Source: an uncultured Candidatus Saccharibacteria bacterium
GTDB taxonomy: Bacteria > Patescibacteriota > UBA1384 > CAILIB01
Reading direction: 5' to 3'
Length of the DNA: 64,000 bases
NCBI GenBank assembly: GCA_964593885.1
Contig: CAZQKK010000001.1
Coordinates: 169,929 to 233,928 of the forward strand
Both the position numbers and the translations under genes were made by a program. The notes beneath the pieces were generated by a model. The model was not told the DNA's origin. It did not search any database and was given only the letters and a program-made list of their open reading frames with translations. Position 1 is the first letter of the stretch, and each line of letters begins with the position of its first letter. Positions 5,602-41,999 of the stretch are shown piece by piece.

Positions 5602-5841
5602 ATGGCACTCCAGGTAACCGTCATCAACCCTGACGAAGTCCTCTTTGAGGGTGAGGTGGAGTACATCTTAGCTCCCACCCCAAAGGGAACAGTGGGTATC
5701 TTACCTAATCATACCCCGATGTTTGCCGAGCTCAGGCCTGGTGAGGTAATCCTCCATGGAACCGAGGAGAAAAAATACACCATTGATGCGGGCCTCCTGA
5801 AAGTACGGGCTGACGAGGTGACCATTCTCATTGGATTGTAA
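5602..5841 (+). CDS. atpC: ATP synthase F1 epsilon subunit, short form (beta-sandwich domain only)
   Basis: 79 aa, ...VINPDEVLFEGEVEYILAPTPKGTVGILPNHTPMFAEL... The C-terminal helical hairpin is absent. Confidence 0.8.
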   Translation: MALQVTVINPDEVLFEGEVEYILAPTPKGTVGILPNHTPMFAELRPGEVILHGTEEKKYTIDAGLLKVRADEVTILIGL

Positions 5842-5858: not shown

Positions 5859-5882
5859 GAGACTCCCATGAGTCTCTTTTTT
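5859..5882 (+). terminator. intrinsic terminator after the atp operon
   Basis: Stem gagactc / loop ccat / stem gagtctc, followed by tttttt. Confidence 0.6.
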
Positions 5883-6036
5883 GTAGGCTTCCAACTCTTT
5901 TGGATACCTCGCACTTCAATGTATATCTGGCAAAAGTGCGTCTCACCCAGTCTTTCTGGTTTCGGCTTCCAGATAGCAGAATTTCATACACCATCGTACG
6001 TTTAGGTTTTGCAACCTGACCTACACTGTTGACACC

Positions 6037-6066
6037 TATAAGCAAGCTCCCGTTTAATGGTTGTGT
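6037..6066 (+). promoter_or_regulatory. candidate sigma70-like promoter (TTGACA-N18-TTTAAT)
   Basis: This is the only good -35/-10 pair in the 270-bp intergenic region upstream of the 6161 ORF. Confidence 0.25.
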
Positions 6067-6160
6067 ATCTGTAATCTTTACAACTCGAACACCCAACTTC
6101 CCAACCTTTCCACCATTTCACCTTTTATTTGATCCCCTTTATCCGTAACTACCTGTCTCT

Positions 6161-7315
6161 ATGACAAACTTTCGTAAGGTAGTAAGCACGTTACTCTCAG
6201 TGAGTACCGCCCTTACCCTCACCGGCTTCAATTTGGCTGGTACCGCACAAGGTGCCCAGTTGAAAGAAGCGTCAGTATCCCTCGCGGACCCACGTCCAAG
6301 CACTAGTACTTCGCACACAATCACGTTTAAGATTGCAACAACAAACAACGTAGGAAGCCTACAGTTTGTCTACGCAAACACCGCTTCTGGTTCAGGTCTG
6401 CCAACTGGTCTTACCACCAACGCAAACACCACCATTACGACGTTCACCACACCTGCAAACGATGCAGCAAACTGGACCCGTACTAACCCTGCAAACGGCA
6501 CAATGCGTTTCTTCCGTTCTTCAGCTACCTCAGCTACCGCTAACGATACCTGGATTGTTACACTCCCAGCTATCACCAACAACAGCCAATCATCAGCTTG
6601 TGACGCTGTCTCAAACTCAGACTCCTGCTGGGTACAGATCACCACTTACTCAGATACTGGTTGGGCAACCCCAGTAGACAGTACCACCGCTACCTACACC
6701 ATTACAGACTCTGTAACAGTTACGGCTACGGTAGACCCAATCCTTACCTTCACCGTTGCAGCCGTTACCTCTGGTAACCTTGCATCAAACGACACAAATG
6801 CTGGTACTGGTACCACAGTAACTTCTACTGCTACCACCCTGCCATTTGGTAACGTTACCGTAGGTACTCCTAAGATGGCTCAGCACCAGCTGAACACCCA
6901 GACTAACGCTAACAACGGTTACACCATCTACGGTAAGTTCATCACTGCCGGAAATGAAGTAATGGTTGGAAACGCAGTCTCAACAAACAACATCGACAGG
7001 TTCACCGCTTCTTCCGCTACCTGGTCAAGTCCACAGACCTGGGCAGCACCAACTGGTTCAACTGCTAACGTAAACTCTGCTTGGCTTGGTGCTCGTACAA
7101 CCGACACCGACGTTGCAGGATTCAACGTTTCTGACAAGTACGGTCCTCCAGATATTCTTTCAGACTCTGGTTCAGGTAAGGCTGTCATGAGTTCAACAGG
7201 TCCTGATAACGGTTCAACCGCTGTCTACGTTACCTACAAGATTCAGGCAAACGCCTTCCAACCTGCTGACCTTTACACAGGAACATGGGTGTACAACGTT
7301 CTCGCTAGCTACTAG
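6161..7315 (+). CDS. secreted Thr/Ser/Asn-rich protein (signal peptide, low complexity), possible abundant surface or S-layer-like protein
   Basis: N-terminal signal peptide (..LAGTAQGA). Strongly biased T/S/N/A composition. Stand-alone transcription unit with its own terminator. Confidence 0.6.
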   Translation: MTNFRKVVSTLLSVSTALTLTGFNLAGTAQGAQLKEASVSLADPRPSTSTSHTITFKIATTNNVGSLQFVYANTASGSGLPTGLTTNANTTITTFTTPANDAANWTRTNPANGTMRFFRSSATSATANDTWIVTLPAITNNSQSSACDAVSNSDSCWVQITTYSDTGWATPVDSTTATYTITDSVTVTATVDPILTFTVAAVTSGNLASNDTNAGTGTTVTSTATTLPFGNVTVGTPKMAQHQLNTQTNANNGYTIYGKFITAGNEVMVGNAVSTNNIDRFTASSATWSSPQTWAAPTGSTANVNSAWLGARTTDTDVAGFNVSDKYGPPDILSDSGSGKAVMSSTGPDNGSTAVYVTYKIQANAFQPADLYTGTWVYNVLASY

Positions 7316-7333
7316 TTAGAACCTCTTGTCAGA

Positions 7334-7365
7334 AAAGCGCTCCCTCACGGGGGCGCTTTTCGTTT
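7334..7365 (+). terminator. intrinsic terminator
   Basis: aaagcgctccc-tcac-gggggcgcttt stem-loop followed by T-rich sequence. Confidence 0.55.
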
Positions 7366-7384
7366 AGTATATTTCGCCTATACT

Positions 7385-8158
7385 GTGCTCATGGAAGCAA
7401 GAACAAAGTCTATTCTCACCATTTCCCTAGGCGGGTCACTGCTCTTGGCGTTAATCCTTAGCTCTTGGCTCCCCCGATCATGCCCACTTCTCAGAGACCT
7501 GATAACCAACTGCCCTAAGCAAGTTGACCCAACATCACTGCTTTCCCCTGAGATTAAAGAGCTTAACCGTATCCCTCACCAGGATATCTTTAAAGAAACG
7601 GTAGACTTTTCAGTCCCTGCCCAGCCAAATCGTGAAGCTACCCAGGTGAGATTTACCTACCGCGGGAATTTAGAGAAACAGTTTGTCTACCTCAAAGTCA
7701 TAGAGGCAACTGGTGAGCGCGTTATCACCGTGGTTAACCACCCCCTCCTCTTCAAGCTCAACTGGCCGCGCATCTCCACCACACTCCCCAACGCTACCAT
7801 CTACCAGCGCAATCTCACCTACGCCTCTATTGATGAACTCAAGGCAAACCTCCCTAGCAAGGCTTTCTTTGCGGTAGATAGCGTCATTGCTAAAGAGTGG
7901 AACCTTAGCCCTGAGCAGTACACCCTCTTAGACTCACTCACCAGCCTTGATGGCATTGAAACCATAGCTACTAGCTACATCCCCCCAGAGCCTGACGGTG
8001 AGTGGTACAAGTTCTCCCAAACCTTCGATCTCACCAATGCATTTGTTGACGGAATTACCGGAAACCTCAAGTGGTTCCTCAAACTCCCCGGCAATAACGC
8101 AGAGGGTGAGCCATTCAGAATGAGCACCGTGAACGTCGGTTTTACCTCCAAGAAGTAA
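7385..8158 (+). CDS. hypothetical secreted / membrane-anchored protein
   Basis: N-terminal hydrophobic signal/anchor. No recognisable catalytic motifs. Confidence 0.5.
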   Translation: MLMEARTKSILTISLGGSLLLALILSSWLPRSCPLLRDLITNCPKQVDPTSLLSPEIKELNRIPHQDIFKETVDFSVPAQPNREATQVRFTYRGNLEKQFVYLKVIEATGERVITVVNHPLLFKLNWPRISTTLPNATIYQRNLTYASIDELKANLPSKAFFAVDSVIAKEWNLSPEQYTLLDSLTSLDGIETIATSYIPPEPDGEWYKFSQTFDLTNAFVDGITGNLKWFLKLPGNNAEGEPFRMSTVNVGFTSKK

Positions 8159-8223: not shown

Positions 8224-9180
8224 ATGTTTCGCCTTACTCACTCTGTGGTTGGAAAGCTCCTCACCGTCTTTGCCGTAGCACTCACCCTCTTGGCGGTACC
8301 CAGTAAAACAAGCTACGCGGATACCGTTTCGGTTATCCCCCCGCGTTTTGAGCTCCGTGGTAATCCAGGCGACATCATCCAGGAAAAGCTCCGGGTCAGA
8401 AATGACAGCCAACAGAGCATTACCTACGCAATCCAGGTTGAAGACTTCCAGGCTAAGGATGATCAAGGGGGTGTAGACCTCATTGAAGGAGACGATGCCA
8501 CTGCAAAGGGTAGCTACAAGCTTGCTAGTTGGATTACTACAGACCCAGACAAAATTACCATTGCTCCAGGGGATGAAAAGGTTATCACCATCAACATCAA
8601 GATTCCAAAGACAGCAGAGCCAGGAGGTCACTTTGCCTCAGTACTCATCAAGCGTTCTGGAGGCGATGTCACCGGAGGTGCCTCTGTTGATAGCCGTATT
8701 GGAAGCCTCATTCTCCTCCGTGTCTCGGGAGCCATCACCGAGAGCGCGGCAGTAGACAGCTTCAAGGCAGAAGAGAGTATCTCACAGTACGGACCAGTCA
8801 CCTTTGCCCTAAGGACTAAGAATGATGGTAACGTACACGTCCAACCAAAGGGAACCATTGTCATCTACAACACCTTTGGAAAAGAGGTAACCAAGATCCC
8901 TCTCACCCAGGCAAACGTACTTCCAGGTTCAGCCCGTATCGTAAAGACAATCTGGGACGAAAAGAACCTCATCGGTAGGTACACCGCAACCCTTCAGGCT
9001 ACCTACGAGCAGAACACCCAACCAGGAATTGAGCCAAAGACCCTCACTGCCTCAACTACCTTCATCGTATTCCCACTCTGGCTGCTCTGGACCATTATTG
9101 GTCTCATCATCCTCATCTTCCTCCTCATTACTCAGAGAAAAGCTATCAAGAAGGCGCTCAACCGCCTCACGGCTGACTAG
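8224..9180 (+). CDS. cell-surface protein: signal peptide, beta-rich ectodomain, C-terminal TM anchor and short basic tail
   Basis: Signal peptide ..SYADTVS. The C-terminal ...FIVFPLWLLWTIIGLIILIFLLITQRKAIKK is a stop-transfer anchor. The architecture recalls DUF916/DUF3324-type (CscA-like) surface proteins, recalled from memory and not verified. Confidence 0.55.
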   Translation: MFRLTHSVVGKLLTVFAVALTLLAVPSKTSYADTVSVIPPRFELRGNPGDIIQEKLRVRNDSQQSITYAIQVEDFQAKDDQGGVDLIEGDDATAKGSYKLASWITTDPDKITIAPGDEKVITINIKIPKTAEPGGHFASVLIKRSGGDVTGGASVDSRIGSLILLRVSGAITESAAVDSFKAEESISQYGPVTFALRTKNDGNVHVQPKGTIVIYNTFGKEVTKIPLTQANVLPGSARIVKTIWDEKNLIGRYTATLQATYEQNTQPGIEPKTLTASTTFIVFPLWLLWTIIGLIILIFLLITQRKAIKKALNRLTAD

Positions 9181-9192
9181 CCCCGCAGCAGA

Positions 9193-10449
9193 ATGAGAGG
9201 GGTCCCACTGCTGCTTCGCCGCTTGATTGCCGGTAGCCTGATCACCCTGGCTACACTCTTCCCTATACTCCAACCACCGCAGGTTACCCACGCTGTGGGA
9301 GGGCTGGACCTGGCACGTGACTACATTGGAAGCCTCATTCCTGACGCTCCAAACATCTACCACGAGCTCTACTTCGTGCTACCAACAGGTTCAGAGCAGA
9401 TTAAGCCTGATGACTGGATTCTCATAGAGTTCCCCAACTACCAGCTGGTAGACATGGATGAAGCCATCTTCATTGGGAGCTTCAACACCCCAACAGTAAG
9501 CGTTGTAGGTACCACGGTAAGGATTACTGGACTAGCACTGCTGCCGGGAACCGGGGTAACCATCGCCAACGTAAAAGCCACCAACCCACCGGCTTTCGTG
9601 AGCACGGAAGTTAGGATAAAAGTTGCCGAAGATAACACTGGTTCGGTGGTGAGAAACCAAGCTACCATTATTCCTTCTGATACCAGGAGCGTGGTTAACG
9701 CAAGTGCTACCATTGAAACCCCCCTATCCTCACTCTCAATCAGTGGCTACACGGTTCCCTCAGCTTTCGTTACGGCTACAGAAAACGGAGGTGTAGCTGG
9801 TACCACCACCTCAAACGTAAACGGCTTCTTTACCTTCGTTATTACTGCCGCAGACCCTGGAAGTCATACGTACCTTATCTTTTCCACCGACCAAAATAAC
9901 CGCTCAACTGCACAGACCGCCGTCAACGTCTTCCTCATCGCCAATACCCTCACCACTGTTTCGCAAATCCTCCTCTCCTCTACCCTCGCCATTGATAAGG
10001 CTGAGATTGATCCTGGTGAGGTAATAACCTTCTACGGTACAGCAAAGCCAAACTCTCAGATTAACATCTTTGTTGAGGGTCCTCTCAGAACCTACTTCTC
10101 TAACTCCAACGCCGCAGGTGATTGGACCTTCACCCTCAGTGCCCTGGAAACCCAGGGGTATACCCCCGGTCAGTACCAGGTGTATACCATTGTGCAGGAC
10201 AACATTGGTAACCAGAGTATCACCAGTAACACGCTCACCTTCAAGGTGAAAAGCCAGGACAGTAACAACCCTGATCCTCTCTGCGATATTTCACGTGGAG
10301 ACCTCAACTGTAACAGCGTCACAAACCTAGTAGACTTTTCAATCCTACTCTACCACTGGGGCACAAATCACAAAGTTGCCGATATTAACAAAGACGGTGT
10401 GGTAAGCCTGGTAGATTTCTCGGTAATGATGTTCTACTTCACCAACTAG
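9193..10449 (+). CDS. secreted protein with Ig-like repeats and a C-terminal dockerin-like module
   Basis: Signal peptide. Two Ig-like repeats. The last 55 aa, CDISRGDLNCNSVTNLVDFSILLYHWGT...ADINKDGVVSLVDFSVMMFYF, are two calcium-binding D-x-N-x-D-G-x-V-x-x-x-D-F repeats typical of type I dockerin. Confidence 0.65.
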   Translation: MRGVPLLLRRLIAGSLITLATLFPILQPPQVTHAVGGLDLARDYIGSLIPDAPNIYHELYFVLPTGSEQIKPDDWILIEFPNYQLVDMDEAIFIGSFNTPTVSVVGTTVRITGLALLPGTGVTIANVKATNPPAFVSTEVRIKVAEDNTGSVVRNQATIIPSDTRSVVNASATIETPLSSLSISGYTVPSAFVTATENGGVAGTTTSNVNGFFTFVITAADPGSHTYLIFSTDQNNRSTAQTAVNVFLIANTLTTVSQILLSSTLAIDKAEIDPGEVITFYGTAKPNSQINIFVEGPLRTYFSNSNAAGDWTFTLSALETQGYTPGQYQVYTIVQDNIGNQSITSNTLTFKVKSQDSNNPDPLCDISRGDLNCNSVTNLVDFSILLYHWGTNHKVADINKDGVVSLVDFSVMMFYFTN

Positions 10450-10451
10450 AC

Positions 10452-11027
10452 ATGCAACCATCAGTCCTCTCTAAGCTCCCGAAAACACTCCTCTCATGGT
10501 GGAAACACCTGAGAAAGAAACACCGCCTGGTGATCTATGCACTGATCATTGCCCTAGTAACCCTCAGTGCCCCGAGTGTGATTCGTAAGGCTACAGGAGT
10601 GCTCCCAAGAACTGCCGAGTTCTACTTCCTGGATACAGGCACAAGCCTAATTACTGGACAGAGTTTCCCGGTTGAGCTCAGGGTAAAAACTGGTGAAATG
10701 CCCATTAACGCCATGGGCTTCACCATGAAGTTTGACCCCAATAAGATTGAGGTTCAGCGCATGACCACCGACAAATCTTTCTGCACCTTGTTCACCGATA
10801 ACATCTTTGACAACCAGCGCGGCACCGTCACCGTTTCGTGTGGGAGGCCAACACCTGGATTTACCGGAGACTCAATTGCCACGAGGGTAACCTTTAGAGC
10901 CAAGGTACCGGGAACTGCCACCATCTCCATTGAAGAAAGCAGCAGCCTCCTTTTGGCAAATGACGGAAAAGGAAGTAACATTAGTAAGGAAACTCCCAAG
11001 CTAACTCTGTCTATTCAACAGTTCTAG
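10452..11027 (+). CDS. type II membrane-anchored cohesin-like module protein (paralog 1)
   Basis: Basic N-terminus plus one TM helix. The ectodomain ...FPVELRVKTGEMPINAMGFTMKFDPNKIEVQRM...RGTVTVSCGRPTPGFTGDSIATRVTFRAKVPGTATISIE resembles cohesin-type beta-sandwich modules. Confidence 0.6.
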   Translation: MQPSVLSKLPKTLLSWWKHLRKKHRLVIYALIIALVTLSAPSVIRKATGVLPRTAEFYFLDTGTSLITGQSFPVELRVKTGEMPINAMGFTMKFDPNKIEVQRMTTDKSFCTLFTDNIFDNQRGTVTVSCGRPTPGFTGDSIATRVTFRAKVPGTATISIEESSSLLLANDGKGSNISKETPKLTLSIQQF

Positions 11028-11032
11028 TAGCG

Positions 11033-12178
11033 ATGCCAACGACCGTCTCCCGCATTACCGCTCTCGTAGCTAGCATTGCTCTCGTCTTTTTGGTTATTGT
11101 CTCGCCTAAGGTGAGCCGGGTTAGCGCTGCTGCCGATATGGCGGTGAGTACCAACAACACCGTCTACAGCTACGGTGATGTTGTTACCGTCACCATTAGT
11201 GTGAACACTGGTGGACAGTCAGCAAATGCCTTCCAGGGAAAGTTTACCTACCCTGCCAGTCTGTTTGAAGGAGTAAGTGGATCATTTAGCGGCTCAATCT
11301 GTTCGCTCCCTATCCAGGTTCCAGAACCCGTGGGTGGTTCTGCAAACTTCTCATGTGGGAAACCTTCTGGTTTTAATGGCACAGGAACAGTGGCAAGGGT
11401 TACCCTCAGGGTTATTGCTCAAGGTAACGCTGCTCTCCGAATTGATAACTGTGAGGTACTTGCAAACGATGGTCTCGGGACAAACATTACCGGTGGCTGT
11501 TCAGATAAGAACGTCGAAACCCTCGGGCCAAGTCCAAGCCCAACTATTGACCCTAACTATGTCCCAAGTCCTACCCCTACCCCAAAACCAAAGAAGTCAC
11601 CTACCCCCACTCCTTCTCCTACCATCAAACCTTCAAGTAGTGTTACCATCGCTATTGGTGGTCAGGTAACCCCAACCCCAACCATTACCCCACCACCAGT
11701 TGCAGAGCTAGGCGCCACAGAAACTCCTGCCCCTACCGATGAAGCCACAGCAGAGCCCGAGCAAGACCCCCAGAAGCGAACGGTTGGACAGGCAATTCAA
11801 GACATCTTCAGTGCTGGAAGGAATATCGGGAAGCTCGGTGGTAACCTCACCGGGGTAGTTGCCCTCCTCATTGCCGTTGTACCTTTCCTAGCGCTACTCC
11901 TAGCCATTCTCTACCTCGCCTACAGGCTCTACATGATGGAGCGAAGACGTAAGCGAACCCTGGATAGGCTCTTCGAGATGGAGCTCGCTGAACTGGCAGC
12001 CCTTGAAGGAAAGCTAGATCTCCTGGGCGAGAAGGGATCAAAAGGCAAGGCACAGTACCAAGAAGAGTTCAAACGAGCAAAAGAGAACATCCTCAGACAG
12101 CTCAAACCAGACTTTGCCAAACCAGTTGACGGCCCAAAGAAGAGCAAAGAAGAACCAAAGGAAAGTGAGAAGAAGTAG
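11033..12178 (+). CDS. cohesin-like module protein (paralog 2) with P/T-rich linker, C-terminal TM anchor and K/E-rich cytoplasmic tail
   Basis: Signal peptide. Module VTVTISVNTGGQSANAFQGKFTYPASLFEGV...ANFSCGKPSGFNGTGTVARVTLRVIAQGNAALRI. PSPTPTPKPK linker. TM VVALLIAVVPFLALLLAILYLAY followed by RRRKR and a coiled-coil tail. Confidence 0.6.
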   Translation: MPTTVSRITALVASIALVFLVIVSPKVSRVSAAADMAVSTNNTVYSYGDVVTVTISVNTGGQSANAFQGKFTYPASLFEGVSGSFSGSICSLPIQVPEPVGGSANFSCGKPSGFNGTGTVARVTLRVIAQGNAALRIDNCEVLANDGLGTNITGGCSDKNVETLGPSPSPTIDPNYVPSPTPTPKPKKSPTPTPSPTIKPSSSVTIAIGGQVTPTPTITPPPVAELGATETPAPTDEATAEPEQDPQKRTVGQAIQDIFSAGRNIGKLGGNLTGVVALLIAVVPFLALLLAILYLAYRLYMMERRRKRTLDRLFEMELAELAALEGKLDLLGEKGSKGKAQYQEEFKRAKENILRQLKPDFAKPVDGPKKSKEEPKESEKK

Positions 12179-12180
12179 CC

Positions 12181-13389
12181 ATGAGCCCACTCAAAAAAAC
12201 ACCAGCGAGACGCACACCAAGGCCAGCCAGGGAAACTCCTCCACAGGCTGAGGTTGCTTTCGTTTCACAACCTGAGGGCTCTCCAGATAGCAGTTTCCGC
12301 CTCCTTGATGAGCTCAGGCGTGAGCTGGAGAAGGGTAACCACCTCAACGAGCTTCGCGCCGACATCACCCGCTTAGAGGGCGAGAAGCGAAACCTCGAGC
12401 AGCAGGTTAGACACCTCGAGAGTAGGCTCCAGGCACAGCACGGCCAAGCCTCGGCAACCCTTGAGGCACTCAAGAACACCATCCGTGGACAGGTGCAGAG
12501 CCTGGACCAGCAGCTCCAAGTTTTCTCCCTAGACACCTCCCATAGCATTGAAGGACTCCTGGCAGTCCTCCACAGCGCAAGCATCCCAAATCCAGACCTC
12601 AATACCATCCCGGTGCACCACCCAGGTATCCAGCCTGAAAGCGTTGTGAGGCCCACTGCCTATGCACCTACAGCAGTTACCCACACCATCACCCCGCCTA
12701 TCCAACCTGAGCCAGTAGAGACCTTCTTTGAGCCTCTCATTGCAGAGCCTGCCCACCAAACGCACGCTCCAAACCGAAGGTTTAGGAAGATTGCCATCAG
12801 AACCTTCTTCTCTCTCCTTGGTATTGGTCTCATTGGTGGCGGCTACCTTTTCCTTCGCCCAACTACCAAAATCTACCAGGATGGCGAAGTTGCTGGCGCT
12901 GCAACAGGTGCACAAGCAACCCCTGAGCCAAGCACAAGCCCAGACCCGTACGCTGCATCGTTTGCAGAGGTTCCCTTTGAGAAAACCGAATGGGAGCTGG
13001 TAACCGATGCAGACTTCGGCATCGCCGTGCAGTTCCCATCAAATGCCTCTACCAAGGTGAAGGTAATTGGAGGTAACAACCTCTGGTTTGTCAGGAAGAG
13101 CACCTACCTCATGCGCTTCAGTAGAATTGCCACCGATGAAACGCTCGAGCAATGGTGGACCAAGAATTCCTCAACCTACACCGACCAGACCAAGGCAACC
13201 AAGATTACCTACAAGGGCAAGCCAGCAATGTACCTAGAATCCCTCGAGAAAACGCCAACTTCTGGGAGTAGCTACATCATCAAGCACGCTGGCAACATCC
13301 TCACCGTTTGGGTGAAGGATGAGCCCACTACCACCGACGACGGCAAACGCATCTCAAAGATGGTTGAGAGCCTTACCTTTACCAACTAG
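12181..13389 (+). CDS. bitopic membrane protein: cytoplasmic coiled coil, P-rich segment, TM helix, extracytoplasmic domain
   Basis: Heptad-like N-terminus (LRRELEKGNHLNELRADITRLEGEKRNLEQQVRHLESRLQ). TM IAIRTFFSLLGIGLIGGGYLFL. About 190-aa C-terminal domain. Confidence 0.5.
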   Translation: MSPLKKTPARRTPRPARETPPQAEVAFVSQPEGSPDSSFRLLDELRRELEKGNHLNELRADITRLEGEKRNLEQQVRHLESRLQAQHGQASATLEALKNTIRGQVQSLDQQLQVFSLDTSHSIEGLLAVLHSASIPNPDLNTIPVHHPGIQPESVVRPTAYAPTAVTHTITPPIQPEPVETFFEPLIAEPAHQTHAPNRRFRKIAIRTFFSLLGIGLIGGGYLFLRPTTKIYQDGEVAGAATGAQATPEPSTSPDPYAASFAEVPFEKTEWELVTDADFGIAVQFPSNASTKVKVIGGNNLWFVRKSTYLMRFSRIATDETLEQWWTKNSSTYTDQTKATKITYKGKPAMYLESLEKTPTSGSSYIIKHAGNILTVWVKDEPTTTDDGKRISKMVESLTFTN

Positions 13390-13401
13390 CAGAAAGGGAA
13401 G

Positions 13402-14607
13402 ATGGGGGCACTTCTCACCGGCTGGATACCTTGGGTAACTACCCCTCTCGCACTCTTTGCGGGGGCAGTTTTCCTGTACCTTAGCTGGTGCTCAGTTACC
13501 CACTGGTTAGCAAAGCGACAGCTCTTCCACCTGCTGCTCGCGGTACTCCTCCTTACCGCCGCTCCCCTCATATCTCTCACCATCTACATGAGCAACTGGG
13601 GCACCTTGCTTGGAATAGGGGTAGTGGGCTTTGCCAGTTTTGCCGTGAGAGATCTCATTGCAGCCAAGACAACCTACCACATCAGTTTTGTGAGAGGTCT
13701 CATCATTACAGCAGCCGTATGGATTGGACTCACCAGTCTCTTTTCGTACCAGCAGTACCAGAACTACCTCCTTCGGACCGATGAGAGGCTGAGTACCGCA
13801 ATAGAGGTGGTGAGTTCCCGTGAGCAGAAGGCTCGTGAGTTAGCTGCCAAGCTGAGTCAGGAAGACTTTGTCCTCCGCCTTGCACAAGGAGGATCACAAG
13901 CTGCTGCCATCACCGAGCTCCAGCGGTACATGGTGAGCAACCAACTCCAATTTGTTACCGTGGCTTCCACCCAGGGAACTGTACTGCTGAGAGCGCAGGA
14001 ATCAACACGGAGTGGTGATAACATCCTCGACTTCTCACCATGGGTACTCCCCGCCCTCGGCGGTGAAGTGGTGAGTGGAAAAGCTTACGATGAGCGAGGG
14101 CTGCCTACGGTTTCCGCAGCCGTTCCTGTTAGACGCGACACCGTCCCTGTAGGAGTAGTAATCCTTGGCTTCAACCTCAACCAGAACTTCGCCAGCGACA
14201 TCAGGAACCTTGGCCCTGGAGGAGTGGCCATTGGAACCGTTAGGGGTGTTAAGAGCCACAGTACTGGGAGCACCATAGAGAGTACCATTTACAGCTCGGC
14301 GGCTCTGGATGAAATTGTCAGGAAAGAGCTTGCCACTGTTGTCCAGGGTAAGAAACGTGAGAGCTTCAGCGCCCGACTCTACCTTGATAACGAGCCACAC
14401 TTGGTAAAAGCCACGGTACTGAGCACCCTAGTAACCAGCCAGCCAGTTGCAATCATTACCCTTGAAGTAGACAACAAGCTTCCCGTTAACCCGTACGCGC
14501 TCTCCCTCGTGATTATCATCCTGGGCACCGTACTCTTCAACCTCAAGATCTTCATCTCATTTGCTTCACAGCTCCCAACCATTACCCCAAGGAGGCGCCG
14601 TGGATAG
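13402..14607 (+). CDS. polytopic membrane protein with large extracytoplasmic domain (sensor-like)
   Basis: Four to five N-terminal TM helices, a domain of about 270 aa, and a C-terminal TM (LSLVIIILGTVLFNL). Confidence 0.5.
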   Translation: MGALLTGWIPWVTTPLALFAGAVFLYLSWCSVTHWLAKRQLFHLLLAVLLLTAAPLISLTIYMSNWGTLLGIGVVGFASFAVRDLIAAKTTYHISFVRGLIITAAVWIGLTSLFSYQQYQNYLLRTDERLSTAIEVVSSREQKARELAAKLSQEDFVLRLAQGGSQAAAITELQRYMVSNQLQFVTVASTQGTVLLRAQESTRSGDNILDFSPWVLPALGGEVVSGKAYDERGLPTVSAAVPVRRDTVPVGVVILGFNLNQNFASDIRNLGPGGVAIGTVRGVKSHSTGSTIESTIYSSAALDEIVRKELATVVQGKKRESFSARLYLDNEPHLVKATVLSTLVTSQPVAIITLEVDNKLPVNPYALSLVIIILGTVLFNLKIFISFASQLPTITPRRRRG

Positions 14608-15433
14608 GCTACGCACCATTACCACCCTCAGTTTCTTGCTCATTGGGGCCTTAGGGCTTCCCTACCTTGCTGAGCACAAAGATACCACCCTTAGCGTCGC
14701 AAGCACTGCTACGGTTGATCCTAAGCAGGCTGGGCGAACTGCCATCCTCTCACTGTTGCCACCTGTAGGTAAGCTAAACCCTACTAGCAACCAGAGCATC
14801 GCGGTGAAAATAGATACCGGTGGTAGCCTCGTCAAAGAAGTTGCCTTCAAAATCAGTTTCCCACCCGACCACGTAAAGGTTACCGATGTTTCTTTCGGTG
14901 ATTCATTCTGTACCATCTCACCTGTCTACAGCATCAATAACACGCTTGGGACGGTGACCCTCAGCTGCAAGTCAAATAGCCCTGGCCTCCTGGGTCAGCT
15001 TGGCACCGTTGCCACCCTCATCACTACCCCACTCCAGGCTGGCGGGGCAGCGTTCCAGTTTGACCAAACCGCTTCATCGGTAACCGCCCGGGTGAGCGAG
15101 AAAGATGTGCTCTCGTACGCAGTTGATAGAATTGTCACGTACGGAGACAGCCCTGATGACCACATTGTCGTAACCTCGGTAAGCCACCCAACAGGTAGCA
15201 GCTGCTCGTACAAATCCACCGCTGAGCTCGCCTGGCTCAAGCGAGAAGGTACCACCACCTTTGAGTACGGCTGGAACGAAGACCCTGCTGCTGAACCTGG
15301 TACCAGCACCACCTCAACAAGCATCTCTCTCCCAACAAAACCTGGGACCACCCAGTTCTTTACCGTGAGGAGCATTGGTGAGAAAGGGGTAAAGGGCAAG
15401 ATCACTAGCTACAGGGTAGTCAGTTGCCGCTAA
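14600..15433 (+). CDS. secreted cohesin-like module protein (paralog 3). The ORF-track ATG lies at 14561, and the GTG at 14600 reduces overlap with the upstream gene.
   Basis: Signal-like N-terminus LRTITTLSFLLIGALGLPYLA. Module SIAVKIDTGGSLVKEVAFKISFPPDHVKVTDVSFGDSFCTISP...LGTVTLSCKSNSPGLLGQLGTVATLIT. Confidence 0.55.
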   Translation: MDRLRTITTLSFLLIGALGLPYLAEHKDTTLSVASTATVDPKQAGRTAILSLLPPVGKLNPTSNQSIAVKIDTGGSLVKEVAFKISFPPDHVKVTDVSFGDSFCTISPVYSINNTLGTVTLSCKSNSPGLLGQLGTVATLITTPLQAGGAAFQFDQTASSVTARVSEKDVLSYAVDRIVTYGDSPDDHIVVTSVSHPTGSSCSYKSTAELAWLKREGTTTFEYGWNEDPAAEPGTSTTSTSISLPTKPGTTQFFTVRSIGEKGVKGKITSYRVVSCR

Positions 15434-15478: not shown

Positions 15479-15553
15479 GGCAGGGTAGCTCAGGGGTAGA
15501 GCAGGAGACTCATAAGCTCTTGGTCGCGGGTTCAATTCCCGCCCCTGCCACCA
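15479..15553 (+). tRNA. tRNA with CAT anticodon, closest by eye to tRNA-Ile2 (lysidine, k2CAU) rather than elongator Met
   Basis: 75-nt cloverleaf: acceptor GGCAGGG/CCCTGCC, T-arm GCGGG-TTCAATT-CCCGC, anticodon loop CTCATAA, 3' CCA encoded. Anticodon arm and body are nearly identical to the E. coli ileX pattern (GAGCAGGNGACTCATAA...TTGGTCGC). Confidence 0.8.
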
Positions 15554-17812: not shown

Positions 17813-19126
17813 CTACTTGAGCGAAAGTACCTCAGCCCTCGCCATGAAATCAATGATGGCAGGGTCAACGATAATGTGACGCGGACTGATAGGAGACTTG
17901 AGGTAGAGCCCCTCTAGGGTGGTACACCTACTGAGTGCCACGTACGTTTGCCCGTGGGCGAAGGCACCCTGACTGAGGTCTACAAACACCGCCTCGTACG
18001 TTTTCCCCTGAGACTTGTGCACGGTAATTGCCCAGGCGAGCCGCATGGGAACTTGGGTAAATGAGCTTGCCACATCTGCCTCAATAGTTTCATCTTCACG
18101 GTTGTACGAGTACCTCACCGTCTCCCAGGTTTCCCTGGGGATGAGGTGTTTTTTGCCATCAATGGTAACACCAACCTCGGTGTCGTTGAGCGCTGTAACC
18201 ACCCCAATTGAACCGTTCACCCAACGCTTCTCACGGTCATTCTTGAGGAGCATCACCTGAGATCCAACCTTGAGCTGGAGCACCGCCTCGGTGGGAAAGG
18301 CACTCTCCTGGAGAGCACCGGTTACCTTTGCGGTGTAGGTTTTGTGTTCCCCATGGAGGAGATTGAGCTTCTCGTGGTTGGTGCGCGAGACCACCGCGTT
18401 AGTACCGGCCAAGGTGACAAAGCTATCCTCAGGGAGCGGGACCCCCACCCGGGTGTTGAGCGTTTCGATAATCTCTTCGGTGATATCACCCTTCCTAATG
18501 GCGTTGAGAATGCGCCTGAAAGCTTCATCTTTCTGACGGAACATCGTGTTGAGCTCAAAGATACGAAGGTCTAGCCTCCGACAAGCCGGGGCATTAAAGA
18601 AGTAGATCCCCTCGTAGGTTTCGTAGAGGTACTGCGAAAGCGACTGATCAGTGACAATGGGAGGAAGCTGGTAGAGGTCGCCAAAGAAAATCATCTGCAC
18701 CCCACCAAACGGGAGGTGGGAGCCCCGGGCTAGCTGGAGCTTCCAGCTAATTGCCTCCATGAGGTCGGCGCGCACCATGGAAACCTCATCGATCACCACC
18801 ACATCTACATTCTTGAGGAGAGTACGAGTCTTATCATCTACCGTGATGTCTGCTTGGCGAAGAAGCGTAGGTGCCAGCTTGAAGAATGAGTGAATGGTTT
18901 GGCCACCAACGTTCATCGCAGCAACACCGGTTGGAGCAACTACCACCGTACGCTTCTTGGTTGTAGCGATGAAGTACTGGAGGAGGAGCGATTTCCCCGT
19001 CCCTGCTTTTCCGGTGATGAACATGGAGTCATTACCCTCTTCAATGTACTCAAGTACCTTCCGCTGCTCATCACTGAGTGTTACGTTGGTGAGGTCTGTG
19101 CTGGATGATGCTCTTCGTTTTGCCAC
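17813..19126 (-). CDS. Pif1/RecD-like superfamily-1 DNA helicase
   Basis: Walker A GKAGTGKS, Walker B VVIDEVSM, and C-terminal motif TVHKSQG. A 437-aa compact Pif1-type architecture. Confidence 0.8.
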   Translation of the reverse strand: MAKRRASSSTDLTNVTLSDEQRKVLEYIEEGNDSMFITGKAGTGKSLLLQYFIATTKKRTVVVAPTGVAAMNVGGQTIHSFFKLAPTLLRQADITVDDKTRTLLKNVDVVVIDEVSMVRADLMEAISWKLQLARGSHLPFGGVQMIFFGDLYQLPPIVTDQSLSQYLYETYEGIYFFNAPACRRLDLRIFELNTMFRQKDEAFRRILNAIRKGDITEEIIETLNTRVGVPLPEDSFVTLAGTNAVVSRTNHEKLNLLHGEHKTYTAKVTGALQESAFPTEAVLQLKVGSQVMLLKNDREKRWVNGSIGVVTALNDTEVGVTIDGKKHLIPRETWETVRYSYNREDETIEADVASSFTQVPMRLAWAITVHKSQGKTYEAVFVDLSQGAFAHGQTYVALSRCTTLEGLYLKSPISPRHIIVDPAIIDFMARAEVLSLK

Positions 19127-33851: not shown

Positions 33852-34979
33852 TTACAGGTGGTGAGATTGGGTAATGGTAAGGCGTACCGATGCGCCCACA
33901 ACCGGCACAACGAGGAACACGAAGCTTCCTATTGCAGCCAAGCCTGGGCCAATGTAAGGAATGAGACTAACAAGGGTTGGGATGAGCAGACCAATGGTGA
34001 GCGCCACGAAGAGGTCCTTGTTCTTCCGCTGGCTAATTTTAGTAAGCGAAGGAATTCGTGCCATCACCAGTTTACCCAGGAGTACTGCCCCAAACGTACC
34101 TGCAAGAAGTATGGCGAGCGCATAGCTTGCCATGAGCAGAAGCCCAACCCTCCAACCCAGGATGGTGGCAAAGAAGAGGATTGAGAGGAGAGGTAGTCCC
34201 AAGATGGTAGCAAGTCCCGTGGAGTAGGTTTTCCAACTCTCGGTGTAGGCTGCGTTTAGCACCAACCGAGTCTGCTTACCAAGGAAGAGGAGGATGAAAA
34301 AGCCAAAGAGGAGGAGGCTGAAGAAGTTGATAACTGCAAAGTTCCCGTAGGTTTCTTTCTTTGGGGTGTCTTTCGTCACAGAACCGGTAATTTTCACCAG
34401 CTCTTTACCGGTAAACTCATTTGGCGACGTGTAGTGGAGCGAACCTGCAATACTTCCACCCGTAAAGGTGAGGGTAGTAACGTTTGCTTCAACATTACCG
34501 GTTACCTTTGCCGAGCTTGCAATGGTACTGGCAGATACTGAAACATTTCCATCTACCATTCCCGCCAGTATCACCTCGCCAGCTGCTACAGAGAGGTTTC
34601 CCAAAATGTGTGCCGTATCCTTCATCGTAACCTTGCTGGCAACAATGAAGACATCTTGGCCAAATTCGCCATCAAGAACCACTTCCCCAGCGGCAACGTA
34701 TGAGTTGTAGGCAACTCCACCCAGGAGTTCAGCTTTTGAGGCTGCCACAAAGGCACTTCGCCCCACGGTCTTGGCTACGGTTACCGTTTCGCCCACCGCA
34801 AAAAGTTCACCCCTTACTGGCACTTTCATGGCAAGTGTTGTTGCCGAAAAGTAGGCATCTCCAGATACCTCTTCAGTTGGTGAGACAGTTACGCCTTGTT
34901 CAATGGTTGCGGCAAATGCTGAACCTGTCAGAAGAGTTGCAAGTACGAGACTGAGAAACACCTTGGTAAAAAACTTCAT
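33852..34979 (-). CDS. secreted beta-helical-repeat protein with C-terminal polytopic membrane region
   Basis: Signal peptide MKFFTKVFLSLVLATLLTGSAFAA. Repeated G-x-V/G-E-V motifs resemble bactofilin/DUF4097-like beta-helix repeats. Four to five C-terminal TM helices. The start is set at an internal ATG. Confidence 0.5.
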   Translation of the reverse strand: MKFFTKVFLSLVLATLLTGSAFAATIEQGVTVSPTEEVSGDAYFSATTLAMKVPVRGELFAVGETVTVAKTVGRSAFVAASKAELLGGVAYNSYVAAGEVVLDGEFGQDVFIVASKVTMKDTAHILGNLSVAAGEVILAGMVDGNVSVSASTIASSAKVTGNVEANVTTLTFTGGSIAGSLHYTSPNEFTGKELVKITGSVTKDTPKKETYGNFAVINFFSLLLFGFFILLFLGKQTRLVLNAAYTESWKTYSTGLATILGLPLLSILFFATILGWRVGLLLMASYALAILLAGTFGAVLLGKLVMARIPSLTKISQRKNKDLFVALTIGLLIPTLVSLIPYIGPGLAAIGSFVFLVVPVVGASVRLTITQSHHL

Positions 34980-35072
34980 TGGGTTGTTTAGGAGTAGCAT
35001 CCCTAGCATAGCACTTCTCAGAGCACCTGCCATACCTGGTTCATCTACGTTAAACGTAGTTTTGTGGGTATG

Positions 35073-36396
35073 GATGTCGCGCCTCACCTTCACCACCACC
35101 TGCCTAGCGTGCTTTGGGGTAGGAGTATGGCTGGGCACTCCTTACAGAGCTAACCTCCTTCTCCCAGAGCTACTCGCCGCTGTCATTCTCACCATATGTT
35201 CCTGGAGGAAGGCCTGGGTATCTTGTATTGGTTGGGGTACCGGCATCTTACTCGCTACCGGAATTGGTTTCTGTCACGTTGCAACCTACAGATCTAGGCT
35301 ACCAAAGCTCCCAGAACACATTAGGGTCTCTGAGCATGGCACCATTGTGGGATCCCCTGATAACCGTGATGACGAGAACAGACTCACCATTAGGACTAGC
35401 TACCAAGGAGTCTCGGTTACCATCCTGGTACACACACCACCTTTCCCAAAGTTTGCATTTGGGGACGAAGTTACCCTGACCGGCACAGCAGATAGGGCAA
35501 CTCGCATCGAAGACTTTGATTACCCCCTCTTCCTCGAGAGACAGGGGGTAACCCACACCATGAAACGAGCAAGAATCTCGTTTGTCAGCAAGGGAAAAGA
35601 AGGAATCACCAGCACTCTCTACAGCATCAGATCTCTCCTTGAAACAAGAATAGCCAACAGCATCCCAGAGCCTGAGGCATCACTCCTTAACGGTATCCTT
35701 CTCGGGAGCAGACAGCAACTATCAGAGGAGTTGGTGGTACAGCTACGCAAAACAGGAACAAGTCATGTTGTAGCTATTAGCGGAGCAAACATCACCATCG
35801 TGGTAGAGCTTCTCGTCCTACTCATGCCGCTCTACTCCCGTACCAGCCAGCGTAATGCAACCATTCTCATAGGTTTTGCTCTCAGCATTGCCACTGGGGC
35901 TTCGGCAAGTGTCGTGAGGGGAAGTCTTGCAGCTGCACTGGGTGCCAGTGTCAGAGCCGCCGGAAGGCCTAGGAACTCCCCCAACATCGTCCTGTTACCA
36001 GCTGTATGCATGCTGATTGCAAACCCGCTCTACCTCCGCGCAGACCCCAGCTTTCAACTCTCACTCGCAGCATACTCAGGCATCATCTTCCTCACTCCTC
36101 TGGTCCAGCGCGTTTTTTCACTGCCCCTCAAGTACATACCTGAAGTCTTGCGTGCTACCTTTACCGAAACCTCTGCAGCCACACTCGCAACCCTCCCAAT
36201 TAGCATCACAAGCTTCGGGAATGTCAGCTGGATAGGCCTGATTGCTAACCCAGCTCTGCTCTGGATGCTCCCACTCATCACTGCCTTTGGTGGAGCCTAC
36301 CTCGTGTTCCCAAACCAAGTAACTACCTCCATTCTCTGGATACTGCTCCACAGCTTTCTCAGTAGCATCCGTGTTTTTAGCAAGCTCCCATCATGA
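35073..36396 (+). CDS. comEC: competence protein ComEC/Rec2, membrane channel part (DUF4131 + competence domain)
   Basis: Polytopic protein. The region ...ISGANITIVVELLVLLMPL...SVVRGSLAAALGASVRAAGR matches the ComEC core. The start is set at ATG 35073. Confidence 0.75.
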
Positions 36397-38520: not shown

Positions 38521-40389
38521 CTACGTTCCTGCGGGTCGTTCCTTAGTTCCAACCATAAACTGTGCTGGCCAGGCTTTGTAGGTACTCCTGAAAACTTGGC
38601 GATTGATTTCTTTGCCGCCTCTCACAACGGTGTACGTGGCGATAGTTTTTGCGCCATCATGGGCTGACTCAATTTTCTGCTCTTCCCCAACAAAGAGAGT
38701 GTCAGTAGGAATGTATATTGGCGCACCTACAGGGAGTGTTTCAAGGATGACTGGTTTCTCAATGGTGGAGACTCTTCCGTCTGATGTTCCGTAGATTTCA
38801 AAAGTAAGGCTGTTTCCCTTGATAAATGACTGCACGAGGACTGCACTCGTAAAATCGTTTTTCCATCTGAAGTCTGGGTGGGGTCCGTAGATGGTAGCAT
38901 CAAGACCAGGCCCCACACCCCTTTCGTAGTAGCTCACCCGGTAGGAGTGGTTAGCACGCTCGGTAATCGGCAATCCAGCGTTGAGCACCGCTCTGAAGAG
39001 GGTGGTAGAAACCTGGCAGATCCCACCTCCAGCTTCCGGGACAGTACGGTTGTTCTTAATCACTAGCCCTACAGCAAACCCAGTGGACTCCTCAATGGGA
39101 CCAAGCTCATCTACCGTTGAATACACCTCGCCCGGCATCACCAGCTTACCGTTGAGGTTCTTTTGACCGAGGGTAATGTTGGTTCGACGGTTTGCTGGAC
39201 TACCCGTAAAGTCTGTTGTACCAGTACCCACCAACTGGGTGAGCCCAAGCGAAGCTAGGGTATCGCTTCGCACCGCCGGCTTTGCGGTTGTGATGATCCC
39301 TTTGATGTCTCTCTTCTCAGGAATGGTTGGGTTGAGGAGCGTGGTAGTTAGATTATTAATCGTTTCCTTCTGGTCAACCGCTGATCCGTTTGTCCCCTCA
39401 GCCACTACCACAACCTTTCCATCAACGATGCCAACCCTCCCGTTAGTTGCCCCCTTATCAAAGTTTTTCGCCCAATCAACAACCGCTTCTTCAACCAGTT
39501 TTGCATTTAAAGCGAGCTTGAGTGAAGTAGCCTTACCCGCTCCATCTCGAGCAACCTCGCTGGTAAGCCAACTAGCGAGCCTTGATGGTTCAATAACCCC
39601 GTTGCCTACATCACTAAATCTCACGTACCACGTATCAGCGAGCAATTTTTCCGCTTGCAACCTTGCTGCCTGTGCCTGTTCGGTGGAAAGCTCTGGCTGG
39701 AACGGCGATACCTCAAGTTCTACCTGTGGATTTCCGCTCACAAAAGCACGGTAGAGCGAGGCTTCAAATGTGGTATCGTTGAGGCGCTTTCCTGGCTTTC
39801 CGGCGAGAACGGTTACACTCCGAGAACTAATCGCAAGCGTGGTCTCGTTGTGACTTACCTCAATATCTTTAAGGACGTTACTGGCAAACTGCTTTCTTCC
39901 CTCTTCACTAAACGTCGTAAAACCTAGCTCTTCTCTGTGCTCAGAGAAAGGAGCGACTGCAAGCTTCTTGAGCTGTTGAGGGGTATCACCACCCTTCTCT
40001 GCTTCCCACAGACTGTCGAGAGCAGTAGTAACGGCAAAGGAAGTTCCAAGCTCTGCTGGACTCACTTCCCATTTCTTATCACCGAAACTGAGCTTGAGTT
40101 TACTCTCACCAAATTGAGAAGCCTTCGCCAGCAGCTTTGCCTCTGCTTCTTGTCGTGTGAGACTAGAAACCTCCACACCAGCCACGTAGGTTCTCGGAAG
40201 GTACCTATCTGCGTACCAAAAAGCGTAGGTAGCTGCAGCACCAACCACAAGGAGTAGGCTCCCTACTGCAATGAGGTAGGGAGAGCGCCAGGGAACCTGG
40301 GGAAGCTTCCCGAACATCAAAGCAGCCCGCTTTGCCGTGGGCACTTTCGCCTCCACCCTCTGCTGCTTTGCGTTACGCTGACTCTTCAT
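38521..40389 (-). CDS. VanW-family protein with N-terminal TM anchor and C-terminal G5-like domain
   Basis: The VanW core ...GGGICQVSTTLFRAVLNAGLPITERANHSYRVSYYERGVGPGLDATIY is clear. Single N-terminal TM. Confidence 0.75.
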   Translation of the reverse strand: MKSQRNAKQQRVEAKVPTAKRAALMFGKLPQVPWRSPYLIAVGSLLLVVGAAATYAFWYADRYLPRTYVAGVEVSSLTRQEAEAKLLAKASQFGESKLKLSFGDKKWEVSPAELGTSFAVTTALDSLWEAEKGGDTPQQLKKLAVAPFSEHREELGFTTFSEEGRKQFASNVLKDIEVSHNETTLAISSRSVTVLAGKPGKRLNDTTFEASLYRAFVSGNPQVELEVSPFQPELSTEQAQAARLQAEKLLADTWYVRFSDVGNGVIEPSRLASWLTSEVARDGAGKATSLKLALNAKLVEEAVVDWAKNFDKGATNGRVGIVDGKVVVVAEGTNGSAVDQKETINNLTTTLLNPTIPEKRDIKGIITTAKPAVRSDTLASLGLTQLVGTGTTDFTGSPANRRTNITLGQKNLNGKLVMPGEVYSTVDELGPIEESTGFAVGLVIKNNRTVPEAGGGICQVSTTLFRAVLNAGLPITERANHSYRVSYYERGVGPGLDATIYGPHPDFRWKNDFTSAVLVQSFIKGNSLTFEIYGTSDGRVSTIEKPVILETLPVGAPIYIPTDTLFVGEEQKIESAHDGAKTIATYTVVRGGKEINRQVFRSTYKAWPAQFMVGTKERPAGT

Positions 40390-41231: not shown

Positions 41232-41999
41232 CTAGTAGCTCCCTCGCTTCAACCTACGTCTAATGCCCGAAAGATCACGTAGTGCCCTGAAACCCGCCCT
41301 CACGGCTCGGAGCTTTGAGTCTCGAGAATCGTACCAATCAACCGGTACCTCTTTCACTGCATACCCTAGATGACGTGATATCGTCAAGGTTTCAACATCA
41401 AAGAGCCACCCTGCAACGTGCTGCTTAGAAAAGATTGCTGATGCTGCTGCGGCTGAGAAGAGCTTGAAACCGCACTGCGTATCCCGAATACCTGGGAGGA
41501 GCGAACTCTGAATCACCACGTTCCAAACGCGGGAGACAATTCGCCGTTTCAGCGGTTGCTTCACCTTAATACTGTCAGGTTTCAGGTAGCGCGAGCCAAT
41601 GATTACCTCAAAACTACCGGTGTGTACGAGCAGCTTTTCAACTTCTGCAATGGGAGTTGAGGCATCCGCATCCATGAAAAGCCTCCAGTCACCCTTTGCA
41701 GCAAGCATACCTTGGGCAACAACTGCTCCCTTTCCTCGGTTCACCTGGTTCTCAAGAAGGGTGAGCTGCTGAAAACGTTGTGAAATCTCACGTACTACCT
41801 TGGCAGTAGCGTCGGTACTCCCATCATCAACCACCAGCACCTCTACACTGAACTGCTGACGCTCAACCCAGTCCCTCACCAAAGCAAGCGTCTCTGGGAG
41901 ACGTTTCTCTTCGTTGTAGGCGGGAATGATGATAGAAAGGTGGACTGACATACCTTCAGGATACCAGAAGCTCAGCGTGATTCTATTCGTGATATCCAC
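41232..41999 (-). CDS. family 2 glycosyltransferase, polyprenyl-phosphate sugar synthase (DPM1/GtrB-like)
   Basis: LSIIIPAYNEE...VVDDGSTDAT... and a DAD motif (FMDADAS). Confidence 0.8.
   Translation of the reverse strand: MDITNRITLSFWYPEGMSVHLSIIIPAYNEEKRLPETLALVRDWVERQQFSVEVLVVDDGSTDATAKVVREISQRFQQLTLLENQVNRGKGAVVAQGMLAAKGDWRLFMDADASTPIAEVEKLLVHTGSFEVIIGSRYLKPDSIKVKQPLKRRIVSRVWNVVIQSSLLPGIRDTQCGFKLFSAAAASAIFSKQHVAGWLFDVETLTISRHLGYAVKEVPVDWYDSRDSKLRAVRAGFRALRDLSGIRRRLKRGSY

Follow-up and report, generated by a model that had tools for sequence, protein, structure and literature searches.

What would a bacterium do with cohesins and a dockerin, the two interaction modules of the cellulosome, within a set of envelope genes that offers no enzymes for them to assemble? 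The question is raised by a 64,000-nucleotide stretch of DNA, hereafter the window, from an uncultured Candidatus Saccharibacteria bacterium (assembly GCA_964593885.1, contig CAZQKK010000001.1, positions 169,929 to 233,928 of the forward strand). A preliminary description of seven genes within it, made from the sequence alone, had read them as a cellulosome minus its enzymes that would serve in non-cellulosomal surface assembly or adhesion. The domain calls of that description and the absence of enzymes are borne out by the analysis given here; what it missed is that the genes belong to a larger unit of nine to ten genes, and that this unit includes a homologue of the WxL-interacting protein (WxLIP), a dCache_3 protein and coiled-coil parts. 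With a probability of roughly 0.6, the cluster is a conserved envelope cluster of the Patescibacteria that builds a non-cellulosomal cohesin-dockerin display complex. Three membrane proteins with one extracellular cohesin each are encoded beside a single secreted protein, 9193, which carries several immunoglobulin-like (Ig-like) domains and the dockerin. All coordinates are positions in the window, and genes A to I are those at 6161, 7385, 8224, 9193, 10452, 11033, 12181, 13402 and 14600, all of which lie on the + strand.

The first step in answering the question concerns the identity of the dockerin. Gene D (9193..10449) encodes a protein of 418 residues which, by Kyte-Doolittle hydropathy, begins with a signal peptide. 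A beta domain lies in its N-terminal part, Ig-like domains of the Big_6-like and Big_13 types follow, and the dockerin module closes the protein (10282..10446, residues 364-418). In an hmmscan search Pfam Big_13 is matched at 33.7 bits and Dockerin_1 (PF00404) at 22.7 bits, with a cutoff of 22.9 for the latter. The C-terminus is composed of two 22-residue segments, GDLNCNSVTNLVDFSILLYHWG and ADINKDGVVSLVDFSVMMFYFT, each of which consists of a 12-residue EF-hand-like calcium loop (D1, N3, N/D5, D12) followed by a helix; the loops are DLNCNSVTNLVD and DINKDGVVSLVD, and DFS(I/V)(L/M)(L/M) comes after each. The calcium-ligand positions 1, 3, 5 and 12 are invariant across seven dockerin orthologues of different lineages, while loop position 11 covaries between the two repeats in five of the seven (V/V or T/T), a pattern that would fit a near-symmetric, dual-mode dockerin. 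The top eight matches of the 9193-family profile in the PDB are cellulosomal dockerins (best 2yik_A, E 5.8e-4), and the orthologue in one related locus, L003, has a PF00404 match. A profile of the dockerin segment retrieved 140 proteins, and among the 120 listed nearly all carry PF00404 and several come from lineages of the Candidate Phyla Radiation (CPR), although almost all are short fragments that are uninformative on what other cargo bears this type of dockerin. Between orthologues identity is 75-84% in the dockerin versus 45-47% in the remainder of 9193, and the dockerin is the most constrained part of the protein. From its sequence features the C-terminus of 9193 is assigned as an internally duplicated, type-I-like dockerin, which agrees with the dockerin-type tandem calcium-binding repeat first described there. 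The Pfam search gave no enzyme domain in 9193, only the Big_13 and Big_6-like Ig domains besides the dockerin. Anchoring by sortase was considered and rejected, as there is no C-terminal LPXTG and the LPGTG at residue 117 is internal.

The candidate partners begin with gene E (10452..11027), whose product has a basic N-terminus and a transmembrane (TM) helix at residues 26-44 by hydropathy, the layout of a type II anchor, and a single cohesin at about residues 52-189 (nt 10605-11018). It matches Pfam Cohesin (PF00963) at 22.2 bits (cutoff 24.1, E 1.8e-4), and 10 of the 16 members of its family match the same model at E<=0.01, the best at 7.4e-8, with two bearing precomputed PF00963 annotations. 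Searches of the PDB with the sequence and profile of the 10452 family found no cohesin. In a comparison by Foldseek of an AlphaFold2 model (mean predicted local distance difference test score 81.5) with the PDB, the best 50 matches are all cohesins, with target TM-scores that reach 0.80 and E-values between 3e-10 and 4e-6, and they span cohesin types I, II and III as well as non-cellulosomal cohesins from Clostridium perfringens and Archaeoglobus fulgidus (2jh2, 2vo8, 2w1n, 2xdh). The 10452 module, the sole one of the three to be modelled, is therefore predicted to be a flattened beta-sandwich (jelly-roll) of the cohesin type and not some other fold.

The other two modules are connected to that of 10452 by paralogy. 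Gene F (11033..12178) encodes a signal peptide, a cohesin module (~11132-11512), a Pro/Thr-rich linker (~11519-11752), a TM helix (11855-11911, residues 275-293) and then a cytoplasmic tail of some 88 residues that is charged and coiled-coil-like, as judged by hydropathy. Gene I (14600..15433) encodes one N-terminal hydrophobic segment, the third cohesin-like module (~14732-15073) and a C-terminal beta-rich region. With BLASTP the modules of 11033 and 14600 match that of 10452 at 3e-10 and 7e-11, respectively, and the third comparison gives 6e-6; hhalign returns probabilities of 98.8%, 97.7-98.0% and 91.5% in the same order. The same cysteine pair is kept in all three modules, and a LANDGxGxxI motif is common to 10452 and 11033 and is missing from 14600. 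Three paralogous cohesin-like modules, one of them on a type II anchor, had been noted at the outset and stand as described. The view of 11033 as a scaffoldin or anchor is right in its topology of linker, TM helix and charged tail, and has to be given up as far as a scaffoldin in the strict sense is concerned, with one cohesin per protein. According to the family hidden Markov models (HMMs) the 64 kb of the window contain exactly one dockerin and three cohesin modules.

The third cohesin had been thought to be freely secreted, and relatives of the cluster point the other way. In two related loci a dCache_3 protein, the counterpart of gene H, is fused at its C-terminus to the third cohesin behind an extra TM helix (L003 13163-14746 and L006 18554-20248), and the N-terminal hydrophobic segment of 14600 in the window corresponds to the TM helix of these fusions. 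Because of this fusion and this correspondence the third cohesin is probably tethered to the membrane rather than free. Gene H itself (13402..14607) encodes a protein with a dCache_3-like domain outside the cytoplasm, preceded by four TM helices and followed by one more. The match to Pfam dCache_3 (PF14827) is at 33.5 bits against a cutoff of 25.7, it covers residues 120-294 between TM segments, and the orthologue from candidate division CPR2 reaches 38.3 bits. A role for 13402 as a two-component sensor or sensor kinase was rejected, since no cytoplasmic output domain (HisKA/HATPase, MCP, GGDEF and the like) was found in Pfam and the protein ends 16 residues past its last TM helix. The remaining membrane protein, that of gene G (12181..13389), has an N-terminal cytoplasmic coiled coil, a weaker hydrophobic segment at about residues 206-224 (Kyte-Doolittle peak 1.46) and a C-terminal extracytoplasmic domain. 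Its family gives only coiled-coil matches in Pfam and in the PDB, and it is conserved in all cohesin-carrying loci.

Do the dockerin and the cohesins belong together? Their binding is proposed on the grounds of domain identity and of co-occurrence. Related loci were gathered with a 27-sequence subset of a 75-sequence alignment, the HMMs of the cluster families were run over the fetched loci, and homologues of 10452 and of the cluster were found in Patescibacteria bins that include Candidatus Berkelbacteria and candidate division CPR2; the organism of the window is accordingly placed in the Patescibacteria, close to Berkelbacteria/CPR2. A single dockerin is accompanied by three cohesin modules in all nine loci that have a dockerin (the window and L001-L008), of which L003 and L006 show the fused form and L007 and L008 are rearranged. 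Four distant CPR loci (L012-L015), each with full 10-kb flanks, keep the WxLIP-like gene and a shorter 9193-like gene, and in these the family HMMs detect neither dockerin nor cohesin. Several of the four records are labelled 'uncultured Gammaproteobacteria', labels that are probably wrong; the gene content matches the CPR cluster. The dockerin and the cohesins are thus gained or lost together, which is the best available support for a partnership and falls short of proof.

It is against this pattern that a reading without pairing has to be set, in which the cohesin folds are structural or glycan-binding beta-sandwiches and the dockerin binds a host-cell glycan or a cohesin from another locus. 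As a beta-sandwich the cohesin fold is generic, the model of the 6161 protein also matches cohesins weakly, and the third module lacks the LANDGxGxxI motif of the other two. In addition, CPR dockerins are common whereas the anchored cohesin has few close homologues (15), and a study of Saccharibacteria speculated that a dockerin protein targets host glycans (PMC10633639). Such a reading is nevertheless distinctly unlikely given that across lineages the cluster invariably has both dockerin and cohesins or neither and that 9193 and 10452 adjoin with a gap of 2 bp. It also runs against the behaviour of characterised dockerins as a class, every experimentally characterised example of which, to our knowledge, binds a cohesin.

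A display complex based on pairing could work as follows. The 9193 protein would be exported by the Sec route and its dockerin would bind at least one of the membrane cohesins in a calcium-dependent manner, the modules of 10452 and 11033 being the best-conserved candidates for the partner. The anchors differ, and this could set the cohesins at different distances from the membrane, with that of 10452 close to it, that of 11033 on a Pro/Thr-rich stalk and that of 14600 beside, or in some lineages fused to, the 13402 protein, so that the Ig-like domains of 9193 would be held at defined heights. From within the cell, the complex may be tied together by the coiled coils of 11033 and 12181.

How far does the cluster extend? 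The open reading frames of the block first described lie at 8224-9180, 9193-10449, 10452-11027, 11033-12178, 12181-13389, 13402-14607 and 14561/14600-15433, with gaps of 12, 2, 5, 2 and 12 bp along the block from 8224 to 13402. For gene I the longest frame begins with the TTG at 14561. The GTG at 14600 is most likely the true start; it is preceded by AAGGAGG, and it gives an 8-nt overlap with the end of 13402; the orthologous pairs of H and I genes likewise overlap, by 4-14 nt. The dense packing of seven + strand genes was thus correctly seen in the preliminary description, as was the claim that all seven products are exported or membrane-bound, which hydropathy supports for every one. The extent of the unit was not, as the conserved cluster begins at 6161 and comprises nine genes in the window and ten in relatives. 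The ATP synthase operon ends near 5840, and in every relative the same series of genes lies 3' of that operon: a 6161-type gene, usually a paralogue of it of about 361 amino acids, a 7385-type gene and then the seven genes corresponding to 8224 through 14600. In the window the downstream end of the cluster is followed by a tRNA-Met gene (15479..15553, +).

The added genes change the picture of what the cluster may build, and so does a closer look at the gene that opens the seven-gene block. Gene C (8224..9180) encodes a protein in which two Ig-like domains lie between a signal peptide and a C-terminal TM helix (residues 285-303 by hydropathy) that is followed by a short basic tail. It matches Pfam WxLIP_PGBD (PF06030) at 33.3 bits against a cutoff of 27.3, and comparison of its family with Pfam-verified WxLIPs of Firmicutes by hhalign gives a probability of 97.5% (E 7e-12) over 250 columns, positions 4-276 of the 343 of the template, an alignment that spans both Ig-like domains. 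PF11797 (DUF3324, HBD) was not matched by hmmscan in 8224, and a sequence and profile search of the PDB returned nothing useful. This profile evidence makes 8224 a homologue of the WxL-interacting protein of Firmicutes, an identity that the first reading of the genes had not recognised. In the working scheme of the display complex, the 6161 protein would be kept at the wall by 8224, as has been proposed for WxLIP and WxL proteins in Firmicutes.

The 6161 protein, encoded by gene A (6161..7315), is a secreted, acidic, abundant-looking protein of 384 amino acids that is rich in Thr (19%), Ser, Asn and Ala and has two beta-sandwich domains; it is the first gene of the cluster and lies outside the block originally described. 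Its family is very large. An exhaustive profile search gave 3785 representative clusters at E<=1e-3 and 699 at E<=1e-30, a search that is saturated by close CPR relatives and is silent on WxL proteins at its weak end. The named sources are mostly CPR, among them Gottesmanbacteria, Nealsonbacteria, Parcubacteria and Saccharibacteria. No convincing Pfam match of any kind was obtained for 75 members of the family, and a sequence and profile search of the PDB produced nothing useful. A second paralogue of about 361 amino acids and about 31% identity lies directly 3' of the 6161 orthologue in four relatives (L001 4041-5126, L003 5880-6992, L004 5830-6906, L006 11260-12411) and is absent from the window.

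Could the core of the cluster then be the CPR counterpart of the Firmicute WxL/Csc complex? Here 8224 and the 6161-type proteins would form a wall core to which the cohesin-dockerin genes are a lineage-specific addition, and the C-terminal domain of 6161 would be a very divergent WxL domain with YxV in place of WxL. The homology of 8224 to WxLIP across both Ig-like domains, with the C-terminal TM helix, speaks for this, and so does the pairing in relatives of two 6161-like paralogues with one WxLIP-like gene, as in the 'one WxLIP plus two WxL' definition (PMC10599100). Moreover, the pair of a gene A-like and a WxLIP-like gene survives in distant CPR loci without either cohesin or dockerin, where a 6161-like gene is detectable in L012 and L013. 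Under permissive settings hhalign aligns 6161 and WxL collinearly in three motifs, namely PFG, TNAxxGYxV against VTDxRGTxxGWxL, and the C-terminal YTGTxxYxV against YTTxLTWxL. This resemblance is a lead that does not support membership of the WxL family. The comparison of 6161 with WxL is not significant (probability 0.1-0.3%, E 0.2-0.4), none of the 75 family members matches Pfam WxL (PF13731) at E<=1, conservation does not extend to the Trp residues by which the motif is defined, and the cluster encodes no LPXTG protein. A WxL/Csc counterpart is thus rather doubtful, and were it correct it would complement the cohesin-dockerin reading rather than exclude it.

The same protein also invites comparison with fibres. 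The fold of the 6161 model resembles those of pilins, MSCRAMM adhesins, BslA and a TasA-like fibre protein, and it is conceivable that 6161 is the major subunit of a fibre, pilus or S-layer, with the WxLIP-like protein as its membrane-anchored chaperone or base, acting by strand insertion, and with 9193 as a tip or accessory protein plugged in through its dockerin. The very large size of the 6161 family, its acidic and Thr/Ser-rich composition and a terminator hairpin of its own would suit a major subunit, and a published prediction has WxLIP inserting a beta-hairpin into its partner (PMC10599100). The cluster, however, contains no sortase, usher or secretion ATPase, and no polymerisation signal was identified, which leaves a fibre locus highly improbable. 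The hairpin in question has a 13-bp stem, is strong and terminator-like, and lies directly 3' of gene A (7332..7361, +); another (5859-5876) follows the ATP synthase epsilon gene. Since these two hairpins flank it, 6161 looks like a transcription unit of its own upstream of the seven-gene block, which suggests that gene A is transcribed more strongly than, or separately from, the genes downstream.

The cohesin-dockerin display complex is the reading that we prefer, and a number of points weigh against it. Two Pfam matches of the window fall just below their gathering thresholds, the dockerin of 9193 at 22.7 against 22.9 bits and the cohesin of 10452 at 22.2 against 24.1. No direct Pfam cohesin match was found for 11033 or 14600, so that their assignment is by paralogy, and the third module, in 14600, is poorly conserved (30-37% identity). 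There is no explanation at hand for the presence of three cohesins with a single dockerin. The analogy drawn from WxLIP lacks the defining WxL partner, as the 6161 family has no detectable homology to WxL either by Pfam or by hhalign in the searches given above. Finally, no ligand-binding domain was identified in 9193, and the adhesive role is pure inference.

What, then, would the complex be for? The output is most likely adhesion or surface architecture and not the degradation of polysaccharide, because 9193 has Ig-like domains and no catalytic domain and because CPR bacteria live attached to other cells. A more far-reaching proposal, which is tentative and perhaps better treated as a possibility than as an expectation, is that the cluster encodes a hitherto unrecognised CPR envelope complex for attachment to the host. 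The 6161-like family, with its at least 3785 representative clusters, would provide a WxL-analogous wall subunit held by the WxLIP homologue, and in the Berkelbacteria/CPR2 clade a cohesin-dockerin plug would mount an Ig-like adhesin on anchors in the membrane, one of them linked to a dCache-type ligand-binding membrane protein. Apart from type IV pili, little has been established about the means by which the ultra-small Patescibacteria attach to their hosts and sense them. The locus is a concrete and conserved candidate, with one dockerin protein beside three differently anchored cohesins, and it brings into the CPR a family, that of WxLIP, whose descriptions have so far come mainly from Bacilli, and links this family to a very large unannotated secreted family.

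A few further features of the locus and its surroundings deserve mention. Gene B (7385..8158, +) encodes a protein of 257 amino acids with an N-terminal TM helix or signal anchor and an extracytoplasmic domain; it has orthologues in L001, L003, L004, L006 and L009, and its family is unassigned, there being no Pfam match for 7385 and no useful match in a PDB search with its family. Paired cysteines occur in most of the exported modules, including 6161 (147/156), 7385 (33/43), the dockerin (364/373) and each cohesin module, and they suggest surface domains that are stabilised by disulfides. In L001 a gene for a Wzy_C (O-antigen-ligase-like) protein is inserted between the 7385-type and WxLIP-type genes (5910-7715), and the Wzy_C gene of the window lies elsewhere (51002-52582), near a polysaccharide-synthesis gene (41972-43459). 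The Wzy_C genes, taken together with the Thr/Ser-rich 6161 protein, hint at glycosylation of the surface. Other genes of the window encode a PIF1-family helicase (17813-19126, -), a bactofilin-domain protein (33852-35138, -), ComEC (34903-36396, +) and a VanW/PG_binding_4/G5 protein (38521-40389, -), and its housekeeping genes include those for the F-type ATP synthase, FtsH, MurJ, LepA and DnaK.

The nature of the cluster is perhaps best appreciated by comparison with known systems. Within the Patescibacteria there is a parallel in SEML1_0315, a dockerin-domain envelope protein of the Saccharibacterium Southlakia epibionticum that was reported to be essential in transposon sequencing (Tn-seq) during epibiotic growth (Wang et al., Cell 2023, PMC10633639). 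That study mentions neither a cohesin partner nor a gene cluster for it. Like 9193 it is a dockerin-bearing envelope protein of a Patescibacterium. A search of the literature found no description of cohesin-dockerin or WxL-type clusters in CPR bacteria.

With the cellulosome of Clostridium/Acetivibrio thermocellus, that is CipA and its anchoring scaffoldins, the cluster shares the two interaction modules. The dockerin is likewise duplicated into near-symmetric repeats, and the cohesin on the Pro/Thr-rich linker of 11033 resembles an anchoring scaffoldin. Unlike the cellulosome, the cluster lacks, in the Pfam and family HMM searches, a multi-cohesin scaffoldin, a carbohydrate-binding module, dockerin-bearing glycoside hydrolases and anchoring by SLH domains or sortase, and it has to make do with a single dockerin in the 64 kb of the window. 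With no enzymes, no carbohydrate-binding module and no multi-cohesin scaffoldin, the cluster cannot be read as a cellulosome, and that reading was rejected.

The cluster can also be compared with the WxL/Csc clusters of Lactobacillales, Listeria and Enterococcus. The layout of WxLIP is shared, two Ig-like domains between a signal peptide and a C-terminal TM helix, the products are surface proteins throughout, and the WxLIP gene likewise adjoins one or two genes for paralogous secreted beta-rich proteins in the window and its relatives. In contrast to those clusters, of which at least two WxL-domain proteins are required, the cluster of the window has no recognisable WxL-domain protein and no LPXTG protein, and it adds cohesin, dockerin, dCache_3 and coiled-coil membrane proteins.

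That cohesins and dockerins occur dispersed, outside cellulosomes, is already well recognised, and the cluster is to be placed among such non-cellulosomal pairs. In the glycoside-hydrolase toxin complexes of C. perfringens and with the cohesin of A. fulgidus, single modules likewise occur outside a cellulosome, and their cohesins (2jh2, 2vo8, 2w1n, 2xdh) are among the best fold matches of 10452. The differences are in how the modules are deployed. In the window three different arrangements of TM helices anchor the cohesins, the carrier of the dockerin has Ig-like domains only and no enzyme, and the genes, in a Patescibacterium, share a conserved cluster with those for a WxLIP homologue and a dCache_3 protein, to the latter of which one cohesin is coupled. 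What is new in relation to the known non-cellulosomal pairs is therefore the use of TM helices, in place of SLH domains or sortase, to hold the cohesins, the coupling to a dCache-type protein, the setting within a WxLIP cluster and the occurrence in the CPR.

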